DNA of 64,000 nt from Candidatus Omnitrophica bacterium UBA6233 (GTDB lineage Bacteria; Omnitrophota; Gorgyraeia; Gygaellales; Profunditerraquicolaceae). A program made the position numbers and the translations under genes. Positions within the stretch are counted from its first letter, which is position 1. Each line of letters begins with the position of its first letter. The stretch spans positions 61,427 to 125,426 of the forward strand of contig DJWJ01000011.1 in assembly GCA_002440965.1 (NCBI GenBank). The letters are read 5' to 3'. Below the pieces are notes generated by a model. The model saw nothing but the letters and a program-made list of their open reading frames with translations. It was not told the DNA's origin and made no database searches. Shown here piece after piece: positions 13,874 to 64,000 of this stretch.

Positions 13874-14536
13874 CTACCTGCTGCCTGCTTTTATAATGAA
13901 TTTTATGAATCTAAACGTATCTACGATGGGGTTAATCTGGCTCTTCTCTCCCCGGTAGACTGTTTTAATCGGAACTGACGCTATCTTAAAACCCGCCCTT
14001 GAGGCGTTAAGCAATATTTCGGTCTCTATTTCAAAGTTGGAAGTCTTTAATTCGATTTTTTCGAGCGCGCGCCTTTTAATCAGCCGGTATCCGCACTGGG
14101 TGTCGGGAATCTTCTGTTTGCATAAAAGCGAGATCATCCACGACATAAACCTGTTGGTAATTATACGGATGAACGGCATATTCTTTGTATAGCTCATCCG
14201 GTTGCCTACCACTATGCCAGCCTCGGAAGTAACGGCCAGGTTTATAAAACCCGGTAAATCTTCCGGCAAATGCTGCCCATCGCCATCCATAACTAGCGCG
14301 GCGTCAAAACCGTTTTCTATGACATAACGAAAACCCTTTTTCAAGCAAGCGCCTTTGCCCTGATTGACAGAATTACGCAAAACTGTCGCTCCCGCGGCTT
14401 GCGCAAGCTCGGCAGTGGAATCGGCTGAACCGTCATCTACCACCAACACATCCGGATTTTTTTCTTTAATTTCCTTTATAAGCCGGGCTATTTCTTTAGA
14501 CTCATTATATGTAGGAATAATAACACAGATTTTCAT
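13874..14536 (-). CDS. Family 2 glycosyltransferase (polyprenyl-phosphate sugar transferase-like)
   Basis: A 220 aa ORF has MKICVIIPTYNE..VVDDGSADST and DGDGQH motifs of the GT2 family. Confidence 0.8.
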   Translation of the reverse strand: MKICVIIPTYNESKEIARLIKEIKEKNPDVLVVDDGSADSTAELAQAAGATVLRNSVNQGKGACLKKGFRYVIENGFDAALVMDGDGQHLPEDLPGFINLAVTSEAGIVVGNRMSYTKNMPFIRIITNRFMSWMISLLCKQKIPDTQCGYRLIKRRALEKIELKTSNFEIETEILLNASRAGFKIASVPIKTVYRGEKSQINPIVDTFRFIKFIIKAGSR

Positions 14537-14600
14537 CGTTCGACTCCCTTTGGTCGCTCACGATGACCCTGAGCAAGCACAGCGCGTCGAAGGGTCATTC
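14537..14600. repeat. R1 hairpin repeat, copy 1, between lpxL and the GT2 gene
   Basis: The sequence cgTTCGACTCcctttggTCGCTCACgATGAcCCTGAG..AAGGGTcAT is homologous to the elements at 32967-33023 and 53964-54066. The inverted arms are ATGACCCT and AGGGTCAT. Confidence 0.7.
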
Positions 14601-23127: not shown

Positions 23128-23262
23128 TAATGTCAAAAGTCAAAGTTCAAAGCTCAAAATAAATTTAAATTACAAATATCAAATGACAAGAAATTAGTTT
23201 TGGATTTTGAAATTTTAGTTTTAGATTTATTTTGTGCTTTGGATTTTGTCATTTGTCATTAA
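23128..23262. repeat. P-family AT-rich imperfect palindrome, copy 1
   Basis: The left arm taatgtcaaaagtcaaagttcaaagctcaaaataaat... is an approximate reverse complement of the right arm ...tttattttgtgctttggattttgtcatttgtcatta. Confidence 0.75.
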
Positions 23263-23287
23263 ATCTTTGAATTATTAGCCTCTCTGG

Positions 23288-27407: not shown

Positions 27408-27540
27408 TTAATGACAAATTACAAAGCACAAAATTCAAAATAATTACAAATTAAAAAATCTAAATCACAAAACCTTAGTTTTGAAATTTGCCATTTTGAT
27501 TTTTGATTTATTTTGGACTTTGAATTTTGTCATTTGAATT
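27408..27540. repeat. P-family palindrome, copy 2 (between rpsD and rpoA)
   Basis: ttaatgacaaattacaaagcacaaaattcaaaataa... is mirrored by ...tttattttggactttgaattttgtcatttgaatt. Confidence 0.75.
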
Positions 27541-27542
27541 TA

Positions 27543-28178
27543 TTATTTAGAATACAACTCTACTATTAACTGCTCTTGTATAACCTGTTGAATATCTTCT
27601 TTACCCGGAAGCCTTAAAACTTTACCGCTTAATTCGGCTGAGTTGAATTCAAGCCAGGTCGGAACTGTCCTCTCCTTGGATTGCTCCAGGATTTCTTTAA
27701 TTTTATTGAGCGCCTTTTCTTTAACCTTAACCTGAATAACATCTCCCTGCATAATCAGATAAGACGGGATATTTACCCTGCGCGAATTAACCTGTATAAA
27801 GTTATGCCTTACTATCTGGCGGGCCTGCGCGCGGGATAATCCCAGACCTAAACGAAAGATCACGTTATCCAAACGCCTTTCCAATAATTGCAGCAATACC
27901 TTTCCGGTAACACCCTTGGTCTTGGAAGCAATTTTAAAATAACGGCGGAATTGTTTTTCTAGGACACCGTAGATTCTTTTTACTTTTTGTTTCTCTTTCA
28001 TCTGAAGGCCGTAGTTAGAGAGCTTGCTCCTGCGTTTTCCACCCTGGCCGTGCTGCCCCGGCGGATAAGCCCTTTTGCTAGCGGCGCACTTTTCCGTATT
28101 ACAACGAGTGCCCTTTAGAAAAAGCTTCTCTCCCTGCCTGCGGCACAATTTGCAAACTGCGTCAGTATAACGTGCCAT
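27543..28178 (-). CDS. rpsD: 30S ribosomal protein S4
   Basis: A 211 aa ORF has [14 protein letters not shown]. Confidence 0.95.
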
Positions 28179-30977: not shown

Positions 30978-31112
30978 ATTAATGTCAAAATAACAAAGCA
31001 CAAAATTCAAAATAAATTTAAATGACAAATTCCAAATGACAAAACTTTTGTTTTGCTATTTGACATTTGGACTTTGAATTTATTTTGGACTTTAAATTTT
31101 GTCATTTGTCAT
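30978..31112. repeat. P-family palindrome, copy 3 (between secY and adk)
   Basis: ...aatgtcaaaataacaaagcacaaaattcaaaataaatttaaatgacaaa... is mirrored by ...tttattttggactttaaattttgtcatttgtcatta. Confidence 0.75.
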
Positions 31113-31129
31113 TACACTTTTTACTTTAA

Positions 31130-32476
31130 CTATCTTCTTCCTTTAATATGGCTTCCTTTAATAAAGCCTTCGTAGTGATGCGTCAACAAATGCGATTCTA
31201 TTTGTTTTAAGGTATCCAGCATAACTCCTACTATGATCAAGATTCCTGTGCCTCCAAAAAATGAGGCAACCAAATACGGGACTTTAAGCCAGGCCATGAT
31301 AAAATCCGGGAAGATGGCGATAACTACGATGAAAAGCGCGCCTGCCAAGGTAATCCGGGTCATCACATAATCCAGATATTCAGCTGTAGGCGCACCCGGA
31401 CGAATGCCTGGAATAAACCCGCCGTATTTTTTCATATTCTCGGAAAGATCCTGCGGATTAAACACTATTGCCGTATAAAAATAACAAAAGAACATAATCA
31501 GGAGCCCATAAACAACCGTATAAAGCACATGGCCGCGGATTAAACTCTCTGCCAATCTTTGAAATCCCGGATTGGGAATAAACGATGCCAATGTCGCCGG
31601 AAAAAGAATGATCGATTGAGCGAATATGATGGCTATAACTCCGGAGGTATCCACTTTCAGGGGAATATAAGTGGACTGCCCTCCATAAATCTTTCTGCCG
31701 ACGATCCTGCGCGCATATTGAACAGGGATTTTCCTCTGGCCCTGGGTAATCATTATTACCGCGAAAACTACGCCTACCAGAAAAATACCCATAATTAACA
31801 AGGTAAAAGGCTGAATTTGCCGGCGGCTTGCCGCAAAAGGCGAAACCAAAACATACAACTGGTGCATCGCAGCCGGAATCCTTGATATGATACCGGCGGT
31901 AATTACCAATGATATACCGTTACCTATTCCGCGCTCCTGTATTTGCTCGCCCAGCCACATAATAAAAATAGTGCCGGTAGTCAAGGTCAAAACAGTAACC
32001 AGACGAAAACCCCAACCCGGTGTCATAACTATTCTTAAACCTTCAAAACGAGCCGGATTTTCCAGCCAAAGAGCGATAAAATACGATTGAACCAGGGCTA
32101 AGGCTACTGTGCCATAACGGGTAAATTGGTTTATTTTCTCATAGCCAGCTTTACCTTCTTTGGCTATTTTCTCCAAAGCGGGGATTACCGCGGTCAATAG
32201 CTGCATGATGATCGATGAAGATATATACGGCATAATCCCCAGCGCAAATATGGTCAGCTTTTCCATTGCGCCTCCGGAAAACATATTAATTATGCCAAAG
32301 ATCGTGCCGCCTTGCGTCCGGGATATGCGGTTAAAAAATTCGGCCAGGGCTGCTCCGTCAATGCCGGGAGTCGGAACATAACAACCAACCCTGTATACCG
32401 CAATCAAAGCGCCAGTTATAATCAAACGCCTCTTTAGATCCGGAATCTTAAAGGCATTAACTAGAGCGCTAAACAT
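31130..32476 (-). CDS. secY: Preprotein translocase SecY
   Basis: A 448 aa ORF with 10 TM segments. Confidence 0.95.
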   Translation of the reverse strand: MFSALVNAFKIPDLKRRLIITGALIAVYRVGCYVPTPGIDGAALAEFFNRISRTQGGTIFGIINMFSGGAMEKLTIFALGIMPYISSSIIMQLLTAVIPALEKIAKEGKAGYEKINQFTRYGTVALALVQSYFIALWLENPARFEGLRIVMTPGWGFRLVTVLTLTTGTIFIMWLGEQIQERGIGNGISLVITAGIISRIPAAMHQLYVLVSPFAASRRQIQPFTLLIMGIFLVGVVFAVIMITQGQRKIPVQYARRIVGRKIYGGQSTYIPLKVDTSGVIAIIFAQSIILFPATLASFIPNPGFQRLAESLIRGHVLYTVVYGLLIMFFCYFYTAIVFNPQDLSENMKKYGGFIPGIRPGAPTAEYLDYVMTRITLAGALFIVVIAIFPDFIMAWLKVPYLVASFFGGTGILIIVGVMLDTLKQIESHLLTHHYEGFIKGSHIKGRR

Positions 32477-32966
32477 TGATAACTTCCGCTACTCCGCCGG
32501 CCTTTTTGATTTCTTCCGAGGCCTTTTTGGAGAATGAGTGGGCCTGAACAGTTATGGGATTTTTTACGCAACCGTCCCCCAGAATCTTAACCAGCTTACC
32601 CTTATCTTTAATCAAACCTTTAGCCAGTAAAAGTTCCGGATTTATCACGGTTTCTTTTATTTTAGCCAAGCTTTCCAGGTTTACAATCTGATATTCTTTT
32701 TTAAATACACTATTGAAACCGCGTTTTGGCATTTTGCGGACTAAAGGAGACTGCCCTCCTTCGAAACCTAAATAAAAATGCCTTCCCGCGCGGGAAGTCT
32801 GGCCCTTGCTTCCTCTAGTCGAAGTTTTTCCATGCCCCGAGCTAGAACCTCTGCCTAAATACTTACGCCCTTTATGCGCGCCAGCCGGAACTTTTAAGTT
32901 AAATAAACCGACTAACTGCGCAGAATCTTGCGACTTACTCTTTTTTATGGTTTTTTTGCTTTTCAT
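32469..32966 (-). CDS. rplO: 50S ribosomal protein L15
   Basis: A 165 aa ORF. Confidence 0.95.
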   Translation of the reverse strand: MKSKKTIKKSKSQDSAQLVGLFNLKVPAGAHKGRKYLGRGSSSGHGKTSTRGSKGQTSRAGRHFYLGFEGGQSPLVRKMPKRGFNSVFKKEYQIVNLESLAKIKETVINPELLLAKGLIKDKGKLVKILGDGCVKNPITVQAHSFSKKASEEIKKAGGVAEVINV

Positions 32967-33023
32967 AGTTCGACTCTTTTCACTCGCTCACTATGAACCC
33001 TGAGTTTATCAAAGGGTTCATCT
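32967..33023. repeat. R1 hairpin repeat, copy 2, filling the rpsE-rplO gap where rpmD (L30) normally sits
   Basis: The sequence AGTTCGACTCttttCACTCGCTCACTATGAACCCTGAGtttatcaAAGGGTTCAT is homologous to the elements at 14537-14600 and 53964-54066. Confidence 0.75.
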
Positions 33024-33476
33024 TTAACTTTTGAGGCTCTTTAAGCCCTCGACGGTAGCTTTAATAACATTAATAGGGTTATTGGATTTAAGGCACTTTG
33101 TCAATATATCCTTGATGCCTGCGGCTTCGCATATAGCCCGCACAGGACCAGCTGCGATTACCCCTGTCCCTTCCGAGGCTGGTTTAAGCATTACTTTGGC
33201 AGCGCCATAGTGCCCGACAACTTCATGAGGAATAGTGGAACCCTCAAGGCTAACCCTAAAAAGGCTCTTTTTGGCCTTAGTCAGGGATTTGCGTATTGCA
33301 TCCGCCACCTCATTAGCTTTATCCAAAGCAAATCCAACCCTGCCCTTGGTATCGCCTACAACTACAAGCGCGCTAAAATGTAATTTCTTGCCGCCTTTGG
33401 TAACCTTGGTAACACGGTTGATGGTAATTACCTTTTCAATTAATTCCGGCTGCTGTTCAATGTTTAACTCACGCAT
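33024..33476 (-). CDS. rpsE: 30S ribosomal protein S5
   Basis: A 150 aa ORF. Confidence 0.95.
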
Positions 33477-53435: not shown

Positions 53436-53963
53436 TTAACTTGTCTTTTTTTGTTTTATTTGATCCAAACAAATAACAAATTTCGCCAATACCTGATTTA
53501 GCGTTATTACCAAACCCGATATCGGCGAATTCAATGCACCCACTACCTGAGCACGTAAAACTTCCTTGGATGGAAGCTTAGCCATATGCTCAATATCTTC
53601 TTTCTCGATTATTTTATCGCTTAACGCCCCGCCTTCAAGCTTAAGCTGTTCATGCTCTTTGGTAAAATTACATAAAACTTGCGATGCTCCCACGGGTTCG
53701 TCTTTAATAAAAATCAAACCGCACGGACCGTCTATATTCTTAACCAGAGGCTCTAATGCTGAATCCTTAAATGCCCGGCGGGCAACACTGTTTTTTACTA
53801 TAAACAAAGAAGCGTTTGCTCCTTTTAAAATTTGCCTTAATGAACATAAATCCGGGCTGGACACTCCGGAGTATTTGACGATAAATACCGTCCCGGAATC
53901 TTTCAGGGTATCTTTAATACGGCTCTGCGAAGCCTCCTTAACAATTAAACCGATTTTTTTCAT
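53436..53963 (-). CDS. rplJ: 50S ribosomal protein L10
   Basis: A 175 aa ORF. Confidence 0.95.
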   Translation of the reverse strand: MKKIGLIVKEASQSRIKDTLKDSGTVFIVKYSGVSSPDLCSLRQILKGANASLFIVKNSVARRAFKDSALEPLVKNIDGPCGLIFIKDEPVGASQVLCNFTKEHEQLKLEGGALSDKIIEKEDIEHMAKLPSKEVLRAQVVGALNSPISGLVITLNQVLAKFVICLDQIKQKKTS

Positions 53964-54066
53964 AGTTCGACTCGTTTCACTCGCTCACTATGAACCCTGA
54001 GCTTGGTAGCGCTTCGACTCTACTCAGTGTCGCTGGTGAGCAAGGTCGAACCACCGAAGGGTTCGT
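53964..54066. repeat. R1 hairpin repeat, copy 3 (long variant), between rplA and rplJ
   Basis: The sequence is AGTTCGACTCgtttCACTCGCTCACTATGAACCCTGAG followed by a 52-nt insert containing a second TTCGACTC, then GAAGGGTTCG. Confidence 0.75.
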
Positions 54067-54071
54067 TTTAT

Positions 54072-54752
54072 TTATACCGCTAAAGTTAATCCCGGATTCA
54101 TCGATGTGGCGATAGAAAGGCTTTTTACAAACTTACCTTTCACTGATGCCGGCTTTGTCTCGTTTAATGCCTCAATTACTCTTGAGGCATTATCATATAA
54201 TTTATCTTCGCTAAAAGACACTTTACCTACTGAAAGATGAACCCCACCCTGCTTATCCACGCGGAATTCCACTTTGCCTTTTTTTACATCTTCAATCGCT
54301 TTCAATATATCGTTAGTAACAGTTCCGGTTTTTGGACTAGGCATCAGGCCACGGGGACCTAGAATCTTGCCTAATTTACTTAAATCCTTCATCATCTCAG
54401 GAGTGGCAATCACGCAATCAAAATCCATAAAACCAGCCGCTACTTTGTCTATAAGCTCTACTCCACCCACATGATCGGCATTGGCAGAACGGGCAATCTT
54501 TTCGTGTTCTCCCTTACAAAAAACCGCCACCCGGATCTTTTTACCTGTTCCATGCGGCAGGATAACAGTTCCACGAACCATTTGATCGCTCTTCTTTGTA
54601 TCAACGCTTAAATTAAAGTGTAAATCTACAGAACTGTCAAATTTCGTCAGAGCCATTTTCTTCAACACAGTTATGGCCTCTTTAAGCTGATATATCTTAT
54701 CCCTGTCTAACAGCTTAACCGATTCCTTATATCTTTTGCTGCGCGTTTTCAT
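54072..54752 (-). CDS. rplA: 50S ribosomal protein L1
   Basis: A 226 aa ORF. Confidence 0.95.
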   Translation of the reverse strand: MKTRSKRYKESVKLLDRDKIYQLKEAITVLKKMALTKFDSSVDLHFNLSVDTKKSDQMVRGTVILPHGTGKKIRVAVFCKGEHEKIARSANADHVGGVELIDKVAAGFMDFDCVIATPEMMKDLSKLGKILGPRGLMPSPKTGTVTNDILKAIEDVKKGKVEFRVDKQGGVHLSVGKVSFSEDKLYDNASRVIEALNETKPASVKGKFVKSLSIATSMNPGLTLAV

Positions 54753-58254: not shown

Positions 58255-59212
58255 CTAACCATTTAGCCATTTCTTCCTGCATTTTCTTTTCAAATAAAAA
58301 AACTTGGATTTTATACTGCACTTCATTAAGGGGCAACTCTCTGGAAGGAACTATATTAACGAGTTTAAATATATAGTATTTGTCATCCATTTTAACCACG
58401 CCGGAAATTTCATTAGCCCCCAGATTAAAAACGGCTTCTTCGACTTCCTTCTTCAAGGATTCGCCTGAAAGCACCTTGAACTTATTCACCGTAAAAGGAT
58501 ACCTCGTCGCCAGATCCGCCGGAGTTTTGCCGATCTTCAGATTATACGCAAAGCTATCAGCCAAATCCTGACTTTCCAAGGCAAAGGCTTCAAATTCTCT
58601 TTCTTCTCCCGAGGAAAAATCCTTTTTGTTGGATTCATAAAAACTGGTTATCTCCTCAGGCTTCACATTAATCTTGCTACGCACTTTCTGTTCAATCACT
58701 CCATACATAAAAAACTGATCCCTTATCTTATTCTCGATATCTGCCTGCGTCAGCCCCTGCTTAACCAACTCCCGCTGAAAATCTTCGTCTGAATTATAAC
58801 GTTTCTTGACCTCGCTGATTCTGGCTTTAACCCTTGCCTCTTCCACGGGAATCTTTTCTTTTTTTGCCTCTTGCAGAATAAGACGATCCTCGACAAGCCG
58901 GCCTAACAAATCCATTTTTAGAGAATTAATCCTGGTTTCAAGTTCCTTACCCTTATATTCTTTCATCAACTGCATACTCATAAAATGCAAGAAGTCATTC
59001 AGGTCTTTCTGCGTAACAACTTCGTTATTAACGATAGCCACAATTTTATCCTCAGCATAGACAGAATAAATCCAGGTGCCAAAACTAAAATTACAAATAC
59101 CAAAGCCCAAAATTAAAAATAAGCACAAATAACAAATACTAAATGAACAAACCTTTGTTTTGATATTTGGCGTTTTTATTTCAGGTTTATTTTGAGCTTT
59201 GAATTTTATCAT
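58217..59212 (-). CDS. surA: SurA-like periplasmic chaperone / parvulin PPIase (single PPIase domain); start uncertain
   Basis: A 331 aa ORF has a mature N-terminus EDKIVAIVNNEVV like SurA (DKVAAVVNN). The predicted signal peptide is encoded inside repeat P4. Confidence 0.7.
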   Translation of the reverse strand: MIKFKAQNKPEIKTPNIKTKVCSFSICYLCLFLILGFGICNFSFGTWIYSVYAEDKIVAIVNNEVVTQKDLNDFLHFMSMQLMKEYKGKELETRINSLKMDLLGRLVEDRLILQEAKKEKIPVEEARVKARISEVKKRYNSDEDFQRELVKQGLTQADIENKIRDQFFMYGVIEQKVRSKINVKPEEITSFYESNKKDFSSGEEREFEAFALESQDLADSFAYNLKIGKTPADLATRYPFTVNKFKVLSGESLKKEVEEAVFNLGANEISGVVKMDDKYYIFKLVNIVPSRELPLNEVQYKIQVFLFEKKMQEEMAKWLDELKNKSYIKLN

Positions 59213-59220
59213 TTATCATT
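59080..59220. repeat. P-family palindrome, copy 4, overlapping the Mfd C-terminal codons and the SurA signal-peptide codons
   Basis: aaaactaaaattacaaataccaaagcccaaaattaaaaataagcacaaataacaaa... is mirrored by ...tttattttgagctttgaattttatcatttatcatt. Confidence 0.7.
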
Positions 59221-61100
59221 GCCTTTCTTAACGTAGAAATTCCCTCTCTCAATAATCTGCAATATAAATCAAAACCGACCGCCGAGATAAAACCATGCTG
59301 CTCTAATCCCAATAAGTTTCCCGCTCCCCTTATCTCCAAATCTTCCATAGCGATATTAAACCCGGCCCCGAGATCCGCATACTCCTGAATAGCAGCCAAT
59401 CTCTTACGGGCATCTTTTTCTAAAACAATATTTTTCGGTATCATAAAATATGCGTAAGCCGAGCGGTTAAACCTACCCACCCTGCCGCGTAACTGATGTA
59501 AATCCGCTAACCCGAACATATGCGCGTTATTTACAATTATAGTGTTAGCATTAGGAATATCTATGCCTGATTCAATAATCATTGTGGAAATAAGGCAATC
59601 TATCTCTCCTCGCAGGAAACGCCCCATTACATCCTCTAGCTCCTTAGGATGCATTTGACCGTGGCCTGTTTCCAGGCGCACTTCCCGGGGTAATTTTCGC
59701 GCCAACCTTTCTTTAACCTTATGAATATCTTCTATCCGGTTATGCAGAAAGAAAATTTGGCCTTTTCGGGAGATTTCCCTCAAGATTGCCTGCCGGATTA
59801 AATCATCATCATATTCTACCACAATTGTTTTTATAGGCAATCTGTTTTGCGGAGGAGTATTAATCGCGGATAAATCGCGCGCCCCCATTAAGCTCATATA
59901 CAAGGTCCGGGGAATGGGTGTCGCAGTCAATGTAAGCACATTCGCCGAAAGCCTAAATGCCTTTAGCTTTTCTTTATTCTTTACCCCAAAGCGCTGTTCT
60001 TCATCAATTATAATCAACCCCAACTCTTTGAAGAATACATCCTCTGATAAAAGCCTATGCGTTCCAATTACCATATCGACAGAACCGTCTTTTAACCCCT
60101 TCACCACTTCTTTTTGCTCACCCTCAGTCCTAAAACGGCAAAGAAGTTTTATGTTTAAAGGAAAACTTTTGAGCCGGGAGCTAAAATTCTGAAAATGCTG
60201 TTCGGCCAAAATGGTTGTAGGAACCAAATAAGCTACCTGTTTACCATCCATTACCGTTTTAAATGCCGCCCGCATTGCTACTTCGGTCTTACCATACCCA
60301 ACATCGCCACAAAGCAGCCTGTCCATAAGTTTTCCGGATTCCATATCTTTTTTGACTTCTAATGTAGCGTTCAGTTGATCCAAAGTCTCCTCATAAGGGA
60401 ATGAATCTTCGAATTCTCTCTGCCAATCGGTATCCCTGGAATAAGTAAAACCCTTTGTCGAAATACGCATAGCTTGCAAACTCAACAAATCCCAAGCCAT
60501 CTTTTGAATACCCTTACGCGCCCTTTCCTTTACCCGCGACCACTCTCTTCCTCCTAACCGGTAGAGCTTTGGCCGTTTCGCGTGAAAAGCAATATACTTC
60601 TGGACCAAATGCATTGATTCAACCGGCACGAAAAGTTTTTCCTGCCGGTCATACTCAATCACCAAATGGTCCCTGATTTTATCCTGATGCTTAATTTTGT
60701 TGAGGCCCAAAAACCTTCCTATGCCATGCTGATTATGCACCACATAATCGCCGACACTCAAATCGAGAAAACCTGTTAGCGACAAATCTGCGGTAATGGG
60801 AGTAGTCTTTAAGCTACCCGGTTTTTTAATGGGCAACAGAATAAGCATGTTATGTTGCCAAAGGCCCTCACCATTAGAAGGATTAAATGTCCTTATGGAA
60901 CTGATTGAATTGTTATCTAATTCTATTCTGACGGGAAGTTCGAAGGAATTCGGAAAGATATCGATTAAGCCGCCGCGACGGGAAAAATCACCCTCAACTA
61001 AAACAGCATCCTGCCTTTTATAGCCAAAAACAATAAACTCATTCAAGAGGCTTTCAAAATCGATCTCCTGACCAACGTATATCTTCAGGGACTTAAACAT
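59187..61100 (-). CDS. mfd: Truncated Mfd-like transcription-repair coupling factor (RNAP-interacting domain plus RecG-like translocase; lacks the UvrB-homology and D7 modules)
   Basis: A 637 aa ORF has the CarD/TRCF-type region VGDYVVHNQHGIGRFLG. It has helicase motif I (LLCGDVGYGKTEVAMRAAF) and motif II (IIDEEQRFGV). Only 80 nt separate it from secDF upstream, so no longer ORF is possible. Confidence 0.75.
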   Translation of the reverse strand: MFKSLKIYVGQEIDFESLLNEFIVFGYKRQDAVLVEGDFSRRGGLIDIFPNSFELPVRIELDNNSISSIRTFNPSNGEGLWQHNMLILLPIKKPGSLKTTPITADLSLTGFLDLSVGDYVVHNQHGIGRFLGLNKIKHQDKIRDHLVIEYDRQEKLFVPVESMHLVQKYIAFHAKRPKLYRLGGREWSRVKERARKGIQKMAWDLLSLQAMRISTKGFTYSRDTDWQREFEDSFPYEETLDQLNATLEVKKDMESGKLMDRLLCGDVGYGKTEVAMRAAFKTVMDGKQVAYLVPTTILAEQHFQNFSSRLKSFPLNIKLLCRFRTEGEQKEVVKGLKDGSVDMVIGTHRLLSEDVFFKELGLIIIDEEQRFGVKNKEKLKAFRLSANVLTLTATPIPRTLYMSLMGARDLSAINTPPQNRLPIKTIVVEYDDDLIRQAILREISRKGQIFFLHNRIEDIHKVKERLARKLPREVRLETGHGQMHPKELEDVMGRFLRGEIDCLISTMIIESGIDIPNANTIIVNNAHMFGLADLHQLRGRVGRFNRSAYAYFMIPKNIVLEKDARKRLAAIQEYADLGAGFNIAMEDLEIRGAGNLLGLEQHGFISAVGFDLYCRLLREGISTLRKAMINDKIQSSK

Positions 61101-63932: not shown

Positions 63933-63959
63933 TGTATTTCCTCCTTATTTAGTTTTAAT

Positions 63960-64000
63960 ATCAAATGACTAAATCCAAATGACAAATTAAATCCAAAGTC
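63960..64000. repeat. P-family palindrome, copy 5 (left arm only; runs off the window)
   Basis: The sequence atcaaatgactaaatccaaatgacaaattaaatccaaag matches the left-arm consensus. Confidence 0.5.

Follow-up and report, generated by a model that had tools for sequence, protein, structure and literature searches.

R1, a small palindromic element at start-codon junctions best read as an active, MIRU-like mobile element common to several uncultivated phyla

The repeat R1 was found in three copies, each at the start of a different gene, in a stretch of 64,000 nucleotides of Omnitrophota DNA (the window, that is, the whole stretch analysed). It is best read as an active, MIRU-like, junction-homing palindromic element common to several uncultivated phyla. 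R1 probably belongs to the small, non-autonomous mobile elements of MITE/REPIN type and is made of an inverted doublet of a hairpin module of about 35 nt and situated at start-codon junctions. The family appears to be undescribed: searches of the literature on the core DNA, on the junk peptides it encodes and on the concept found no description of it.

Three copies of R1 in the window

The motif GTTCGACTC-N7-TCGCTCAC showed exactly three matches in the window, at plus-strand positions 14538, 32968 and 53965. The number expected by chance was 0.04, and none of 100 shuffles reached three. An independent repeat search recovered the same three-copy family (as D3), and a covariance model of R1 gave exactly three strong matches, scoring 50.7–56.2 bits. 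The family reported in the initial annotation is therefore real. Every copy (3/3) terminated at the CAT, the minus-strand ATG, of a minus-strand gene, which the ORF listing bore out. The gene products are catalogued under Candidatus Omnitrophota MAGs. The copies and their neighbours were located as follows.

32967..33021, minus strand: copy 1, a 55-nt insertion between rpsE and rplO; clean indel by comparison with the empty loci L121, L122 and L124
33017-33021, minus strand: direct repeat ATGAA of copy 1, 5' copy
32962..32966, minus strand: direct repeat ATGAA of copy 1, 3' copy, formed by the rplO start codon and the next two nucleotides; a single ATGAA in the empty site
32469-32966, minus strand: rplO, downstream of copy 1 and preceded by rpsE
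14537..14598, minus strand: copy 2, a 62-nt insertion within the lpxL/GT2 ATGA overlap; empty in L203
13874-14536, minus strand: GT2, a family-2 glycosyltransferase gene, downstream of copy 2 and preceded by an lpxL-like acyltransferase gene
53964..54067, minus strand: copy 3, an insertion of about 104 nt between the rplA stop codon (54072-54074) and the rplJ ATG (53961-53963)
53436-53963, minus strand: rplJ, downstream of copy 3 and preceded by rplA

Copy 1, which reads 5'-ATGAACCC...GTCGAACT-3' on the minus strand, is flanked by the rpsE stop codon (33024-33026) followed by AG, and by the rplO ATG (32964-32966). Copy 2 matched the covariance model with 55.2 bits over 14529-14569. The 21-codon ORF previously noticed in it, with an ATGA at both ends, was recovered at 14598-14533: it starts in the stop overlap of lpxL, the ORF of which ends at 14595, and its terminal TGA overlaps the GT2 ATG (14534-14536). 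Copy 3 (56.2 bits over 53956-53996) is a long variant with additional module-like segments within the loop of its first hairpin. It is longer in the way initially described, with a second (C)TTCGACTC at 54012-54020, and its 5' repeat is mutated to ACGAA (54066-54062). The ORFs differed among the copies, and the stems covaried. The conserved unit is thus the nucleic acid and not a peptide, as had been proposed, and a small-protein gene was ruled out on the same grounds.

Other features of the window were recorded. At 32967-33023, rplO comes directly after rpsE with no rpmD (L30) between them, as it does in 80 of 80 relatives. AT-rich direct repeats of about 144 nt (family D1/D2) were present at 23135-23278, 27416-27559, 30988-31131 and 59095-59238, with a further segment at 63956-63986. 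They hold TAAATTTAAATGACAAAT-type sub-repeats, one copy lies just 3' of secY, and they probably correspond to what the initial annotation counted as its first repeat family. A tRNA/tmRNA scan of the window found only tRNA-Trp and tRNA-Thr, both away from R1.

Filled and empty sites

A metagenome search with RplO retrieved 80 relatives with 66-98% amino-acid identity, and the rpsE-rplO junction was devoid of R1 in all 80. The covariance model had no match in 351 kb of relatives, compared with three in the 64-kb window. Empty counterparts were found for all three insertions.

rpsE-rplO, empty (L121, L122, L124): ...AAAAGTTAAAA joined directly to ATGAAAAGT; insert of 55 nt
rpsE-rplO, filled (window): ...AAAAGTTAAAG-ATGAA[CCC...GTCGAACT-ATGAA]AAGC
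lpxL-GT2, empty (L203): canonical ATGA overlap GGAAAGAATGAAAGTT; in the window, 62 nt between two ATGA
rplA-rplJ, empty (L201 and L202, two independent assemblies): TATAAAAAAATGAAAAAAATC, a 4-nt gap; insert of about 104 nt

The flanks of the copy 1 site in L121 were 88-93% identical to the window at the DNA level, and the insertion left the rplO start codon and the MKSK N-terminus unchanged. For L203, the DNA identity was 81-91%. L201 was much closer, with 99.1% and 99.5% identity on the two rplA-rplJ flanks; its 80-kb contig lacked copy 3 and possessed copy 2. Copy 1 was present in every contig with an identical RplO and copy 2 in every contig with an identical GT2 protein. From this, copies 1 and 2 are judged to be fixed in the species; they are missing from the more distant relatives, L121 and L203 respectively. 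Copy 3, judged from these contigs, is polymorphic among 99%-identical strains. On this comparison of filled and empty sites, all three copies of the window are taken to be recent insertions of a small mobile hairpin element, and the element is taken to be currently active in this Omnitrophota lineage.

These observations do not agree with the initial proposal of a shared regulatory or processing leader through which a common factor would act on rplO, rplJ and a cell-envelope gene. All three sites were empty in close relatives, including the rplJ site in contigs 99.1-99.5% identical to the window, none of the 80 rplO relatives carried a copy, and unrelated housekeeping genes lay downstream elsewhere. 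Nor does the rplJ copy replace an L10 leader, as had been suggested: at the empty site, a mere 4 nt separate rplA from rplJ. A ribosomal-protein leader was ruled out by the absence of R1 in near-identical strains, by this short gap and by the lack of conservation at the orthologous locus.

The inserts were flanked by the repeats ATGAA/ATGAA, ATGA/ATGA and ACGAA/ATGAA, with one repeat copy in each empty site. The flanking (A)TGA also pairs with an internal UCAU, and the repeats could be encoded by the element instead of resulting from a target duplication. A 3-nt T(G/A)A duplication, in which the last A of the element would complete the new ATG, fits both the combination of a 5' GTGA with a 3' ATGA, seen in 10 doublets, and the TAA/TAA flanks of L027 and L093.

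Another palindromic insert, unrelated to R1, was observed at the rplO start codon of other Omnitrophota relatives (L160, L180, L181 and L189; for instance L181:2835-2945). It has the form ATGAA-CCCCGCACCTTC...GAAGGTGCGGGG-TGAAAA, and the new start that it leaves is apparently a GTG, made up of the element's G and TG. This second case points to (A)TGAA at the beginning of genes as a hot spot that small palindromic elements have in common.

An inverted doublet of a covarying hairpin module

On the mRNA-sense (minus) strand, R1 consists of two hairpins, H1 and H2, the second being called module M. The hairpin with ATGAACCCT/AGGGTTCAT arms folded as the initial annotation had described it. From 5' to 3', the module of about 35 nt begins with the first strand of a closing stem and UGAGCGA, continues with a 2-bp stem around a GAA-type loop and then GAGUCGAA, and ends with the second strand of the closing stem, which contains the start codon. 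UGAGCGA and GAGUCGAA are the invariant strands of an asymmetric internal loop, and the 2-bp stem is capped by GAA or GCA. The closing stem is CAUGG/CCAUG in most genomes, and CAUAG/CUAUG or CAUCG/CGAUG in the copies of the window. In copy 1 the two hairpins were placed as follows.

32993..33021, minus strand: hairpin H1, stem AUGAACCCU (33021-33013) / AGGGUUCAU (33001-32993), from folding
32959..32999, minus strand: hairpin module M (H2), covariance model match of 50.7 bits, E=1.8e-11

The closing stem of this module, UCAUAG/CUAUGA, takes in the rplO AUG. Its inner stem-loop is GUGAAAA, and the strands of its internal loop are UGAGCGA (32990-32984) and GAGUCGAA (32976-32969). On its opposite strand, H1 reads as the module of H2 with another closing stem, ATGACCC/GGGTCAT. 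A single palindromic unit thus makes up R1 in the form of an inverted doublet, and the module is present in both orientations within each element. The H1 loop of copy 1 corresponds to a decayed reverse-complement copy of the module (UUUGAU..ACUCA). With this decay and one broken inner pair, copy 1 looks older than the others.

The initial annotation had called for a covariation analysis among copies, and the result indicated a conserved hairpin. Across 98 distinct gap-free copies, 87.1% of the cells were paired (72.5% in shuffles) and the covariation score reached 0.444, compared with 0.189 in shuffles, a value attained by none of 500 shuffles. In register-shifted controls, the score was at most 0.11. 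The pairs of the inner stem varied, with GC 41, CG 39 and AU 11 at one position and CG 69 and UA 18 at the other. Wobbles were found opposite the U and the G of the AUG (29 G:U and 20 U:G copies), and because of this location of the G.U pairs the sense strand appears to be favoured for the structure. For the rplO AUG, the predicted probability of being unpaired was about 0.8 when the site is empty and 0.02 when it is filled. A Shine-Dalgarno mimic (GGUGA) was ruled out, as these bases covary with the closing stem and the variants AGUGA and UUGUGA exist. No promoter or terminator was found within R1.

The ends of the element have only TTCGAC in common (CCCTTCGAC... / ...GTCGAACCA), as terminal inverted repeats they match imperfectly (CCCTTCGAC against TGGTTCGAC), and no transposase-bearing relative was present in 120 loci. 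The core of 24 nt was near-invariant across MAGs labelled as several phyla. Selfish repeats are not usually so uniform, which hints at some constraint other than mobility.

Read in antisense, for example on the plus strand at 32967-32999 of the window, the core is GG-TTCGACT-C ... TCGCTC-A-CCA and resembles the T-loop, acceptor strand and ACCA of a tRNA; L217, L220, L223, L230 and L232 were noted in the same connection. The search pattern with a spacer of 5 nt instead of 7 nt matched genuine tRNA 3' ends in viral contigs, and R1 adjoins antisense tRNA genes in L048, L073 and L098. The likeness to a tRNA 3' end may be a clue to the origin of the element, or a coincidence. A scan of viral sequences for R1 returned mostly antisense tRNA 3' ends and coding matches, and a plasmid blastn gave no match.

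Several known identities were considered. Rfam, at the gathering threshold on the window and at E<=1 on eight representative loci, gave no family at R1. Ribozyme cores (hammerhead and similar) were set aside, as no CUGANGA...GAAA was seen on reading and Rfam had no match. The integron attC consensus consists of R''(RYYYAAC) and R'(GTTRRRY) cores bounding gene cassettes. GTCGAAC and GTTCGAC in R1 are each one position off this consensus, no cassette was present, the copies lie in ribosomal operons, and attC was rejected.

Distribution and positional rule across genomes

The genome scan, with one genome per species, used a pattern that fixed '..NAT' behind the core but left the base following it open, and it yielded at least 120 loci. 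According to the titles of the MAG records, from which the taxon labels were taken, the majority of the loci listed belonged to Omnitrophota. The others were labelled Planctomycetota, CPR (Woesebacteria, Daviesbacteria and Kaiserbacteria), Acidobacteriota, Elusimicrobia/Endomicrobiales, Nitrospirae, Saganbacteria and Bacteroidales. Single MAGs could carry many copies, with at least seven loci in JACPTX01 and at least six in CAZPLZ01.

Among the matches listed, the 3' end was an ATG in 74 of the 101 non-Bacteroidales copies, and 62 of these 74 ATGs opened ORFs of at least 60 aa, compared with 34% of control ATGs. The downstream genes were unrelated housekeeping genes (sucD, rpmG, rplO, rplK, groEL, hrcA, ruvC, glyS, fabH, pdxA and nuoK). 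On the other side, an upstream ORF of at least 80 codons stopped in the TGA of the 5' (A/G)TGA in 25 of 41 doublets among the matches listed, compared with 8.7% of random [AG]TGA sites (nominal p ~7e-17, related copies being counted as independent). The 5' triplet of the doublets, among the matches listed, was ATG in 31, GTG in 10 and TTG in 1, a distribution which resembles start-codon usage. The distance from the 5' ATG to the 3' ATG was 2 mod 3 in 24 of 40 doublets (p ~5e-4, among the matches listed and again with related copies as independent). This most common length class re-creates a second ATGA overlap. The short ORF from the old start ended in a TGA overlapping the new ATG in 14 cases and otherwise 11-22 nt upstream of it. 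Tandem copies sharing an ATG were seen in L018 and L103.

The rule is that R1 is placed either where stop and start overlap by 4 nt or at a start codon with an A after it, leaving geneA-(A/G)TGA on the left and re-creating ATG(A)-geneB on the right. The preference for start codons on which the initial annotation had relied is thus strong across many genomes, and copies with neither positional preference nor conserved structure, the other outcome it had named, are not what was found. It belongs to a mobile element that settles at ATGA stop/start junctions and is no marker of a regulon.

Three other situations were observed. At the glyQ-glyS junction, a solitary module was present in three Acidobacteriota MAGs of different families (L063, L081 and L097), where the ORF upstream apparently runs on through it and gains the C-terminal ...VVSDRRESNH; either these copies have been retained over a long time, or insertion has struck the one junction repeatedly. 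In the Planctomycetota MAGs L019, L044, L069, L080, L084 and L111, a conserved gene (MPLILGPSGN...) is preceded by two modules in tandem; a tape-measure-like ORF lies in the same region, which may be a prophage or a multi-copy region carrying the element. Bacteroidales MAGs from the horse gut (L076:2965-3186, L011:1042-1143, L074, L056 and L108) had a variant of the module with the closing stem CAUUG/CAAU and no ATG. It formed head-to-tail arrays with a period of 60-61 nt, directly after a long perfect palindrome (e.g. AGTAGTTGTTGGTGTTGCGGCGAAGCCGCAACACCAACAACTACT). No spacers were present in these arrays, and CRISPR was ruled out.

Proposed mechanism and alternative explanations

The junction sequences show that insertion is precise and takes place at the (A/G)TGA of start codons, typically where co-transcribed genes overlap by 4 nt at stop and start. 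R1 keeps the stop of the upstream gene and the former start codon on its 5' side and offers a new ATG at its 3' end, which leaves both flanking genes and their reading frames intact. A short ORF connects the two start codons, and the new one lies within a covarying stem. For the maintenance of R1 in operons, we propose the following scenario. Ribosomes coming from the old start codon, the old RBS or the upstream stop may translate a short ORF through the element, ending in a TGA that overlaps the new ATG (the commonest class, and copy 2) or 11-22 nt upstream of it (copy 1). Their passage would melt the stem hiding the new AUG and deliver a ribosome for re-initiation. Termination at or near the new AUG would allow this re-initiation, which would make the insertion nearly neutral, even in ribosomal-protein operons. 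Such a relay could not work identically in every copy, because copy 3 has lost its 5' ATG and copy 1 falls outside the ATGA length class.

How the element moves is a separate matter. One possible view, which we hold to be on balance unlikely, is that R1 belongs with the REP/REPIN-type repeats and that a RAYT or an IS200/IS605-like HUH enzyme moves it as single-stranded DNA, the internal CAU beside the foot of the hairpin pairing as a guide with the AUG/TGA target. The flanking repeats would then be element sequence plus target and not a duplication of the DDE type. The arrangement of an imperfect palindrome as an inverted pair, known from REPINs and BIMEs, would be accounted for, as would the covariation of the flanking triplets with the complementary internal ones (ATGA with UCAU, and TAA with UUA in L027 and L093), the better structure on one strand owing to G.T wobbles and the absence of clean terminal inverted repeats. 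However, no transposase or RAYT-like gene, and no RAYT or TnpA gene in particular, was found beside the copies in 120 loci (8-kb pieces), where an all-vs-all clustering of ORFs gave only syntenic orthologues; an autonomous element with matching ends was likewise not found in these 120 loci. There is no conserved GTAG head, the core is common to several phyla whereas REPINs are normally lineage-specific, and the 5' GTGA/3' ATGA cases and TAA/TAA flanks also fit a 3-nt duplication by a DDE enzyme. Less likely still is a reading of R1 as an undescribed cross-phylum selfish family specialised for ATGA overlaps, the core of which would serve both as a portable coupling relay and as a CAU/UCA target guide. 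The old start would drive a uORF which unmasks and feeds the new AUG, the internal CAU/UCA would base-pair with the AUG/UGA target like the guide sequences of IS200/IS605, and the antisense likeness to tRNA 3' ends might point to the origin or to an exploited host factor.

That R1 is instead a shared cis-regulatory or processing RNA, a leader hairpin recruiting an RNase, an RNA-binding protein or the ribosome to co-regulate rplO, rplJ and GT2, with its spread being secondary, seems improbable to us. The covarying structure on the sense strand with its wobbles opposite the AUG, the invariance of the internal-loop sequences across phyla, the sequestration of the AUG in the closing stem and the element kept at glyQ-glyS in three Acidobacteriota would all suit such a function. 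But these genes can do without the element, as close relatives, 99%-identical strains among them, show by lacking it at each of the three loci; the genes downstream elsewhere (sucD, groEL, hrcA, ruvC, fabH, glyS and others) are unrelated; the two orientations within each element are expected of DNA-level palindromes and not of a single RNA signal; and no Rfam family matches. The polarity of the events might also be reversed, the three copies being an ancient junction sequence precisely lost from the relatives by excision or deletion. Presence or absence gives by itself no polarity for a single event, and the short direct repeats could mediate a precise deletion. We nevertheless regard this as very improbable: many independent precise losses would be needed to leave 80 of 80 rplO relatives (66-98% identity) without R1, the empty sites show the canonical ATGA, or the 2-4 nt, that coupled genes typically have at their junctions, and copy 3 is missing in two independent assemblies of near-identical strains.

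The mobile hairpin element thus remains the preferred reading, and it has several implications. A selfish element would be colonising highly constrained sites, the stop/start junctions of ribosomal-protein genes in compact genomes, without breaking either gene. The principle of the MIRUs would be carried from mycobacteria to uncultivated phyla such as Omnitrophota, Planctomycetota and CPR. The filled and empty strains, with 99% identity, form a natural pair usable for the study of termination-reinitiation coupling. R1 would be a common origin of the junk "hypothetical peptides" and of the displaced start-codon calls met with when MAGs are annotated. Finally, the near-invariance of the core across phyla raises the question of a conserved enzyme or host factor recognising it.

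Comparison with known systems

R1 resembles a MITE in its short length (55-104 nt), non-coding nature, dispersed copies and sites that are filled or empty in relatives. REPs typically possess a GTAG head, are located after stop codons with no start codon adjoining them and are lineage-specific. R1 resembles the REP/REPIN (BIME) repeats in its short imperfect palindromes, their inverted pairing, their dispersal between genes within operons and the strand-specific hairpin. It differs from them in that no RAYT was seen in the 8-kb loci, in the lack of a GTAG head, in a core found across phyla and in ending in the downstream ATG.

Like the L10 leader, copy 3 would be a structured RNA immediately upstream of rplJ; unlike it, R1 has no Rfam match, is absent from 99%-identical strains and also precedes unrelated genes. 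The Neisseria REP2 repeats and the Borrelia inverted repeats contain an RBS and an ATG and are MITEs with expression signals (PMC3184786). R1 shares with the Neisseria REP2, Borrelia and Correia MITEs the character of a small non-autonomous repeat immediately 5' of genes, able to supply a translation start. These bring a promoter or RBS into intergenic 5' regions, whereas R1 lies inside operons at stop/start overlaps.

The closest likeness, by description, is to the MIRUs (mycobacterial interspersed repetitive units; Supply et al. 1997). According to PMC12548453 and PMC3184786, MIRUs are repeats of 40-100 nt at the intergenic junctions of operons that insert at start codons; they contain a short ORF whose ends overlap by 4 nt (-4 nt) with the stop and start of the neighbouring genes, which preserves translational coupling, and filled and empty sites with short direct repeats indicate their mobility. 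R1 is similar in its location at junctions, its insertion at start codons, its filled and empty sites with short direct repeats and its tandem copies (L018 and L103). Copy 2 has the -4 nt ORF overlaps, as does the dominant length class in other genomes; copies 1 and 3 do not have them exactly. The hosts are different, being Omnitrophota, Planctomycetota, CPR, Acidobacteriota and Bacteroidales MAGs and not Mycobacterium, and the covarying inverted-doublet module and the stem-buried start codon are features that PMC12548453 and PMC3184786 do not allow to be attributed to MIRUs. We infer that R1, like the MIRUs, sits at the junctions of translationally coupled genes and that the coupling is relayed through the short ORF, according to the same logic.
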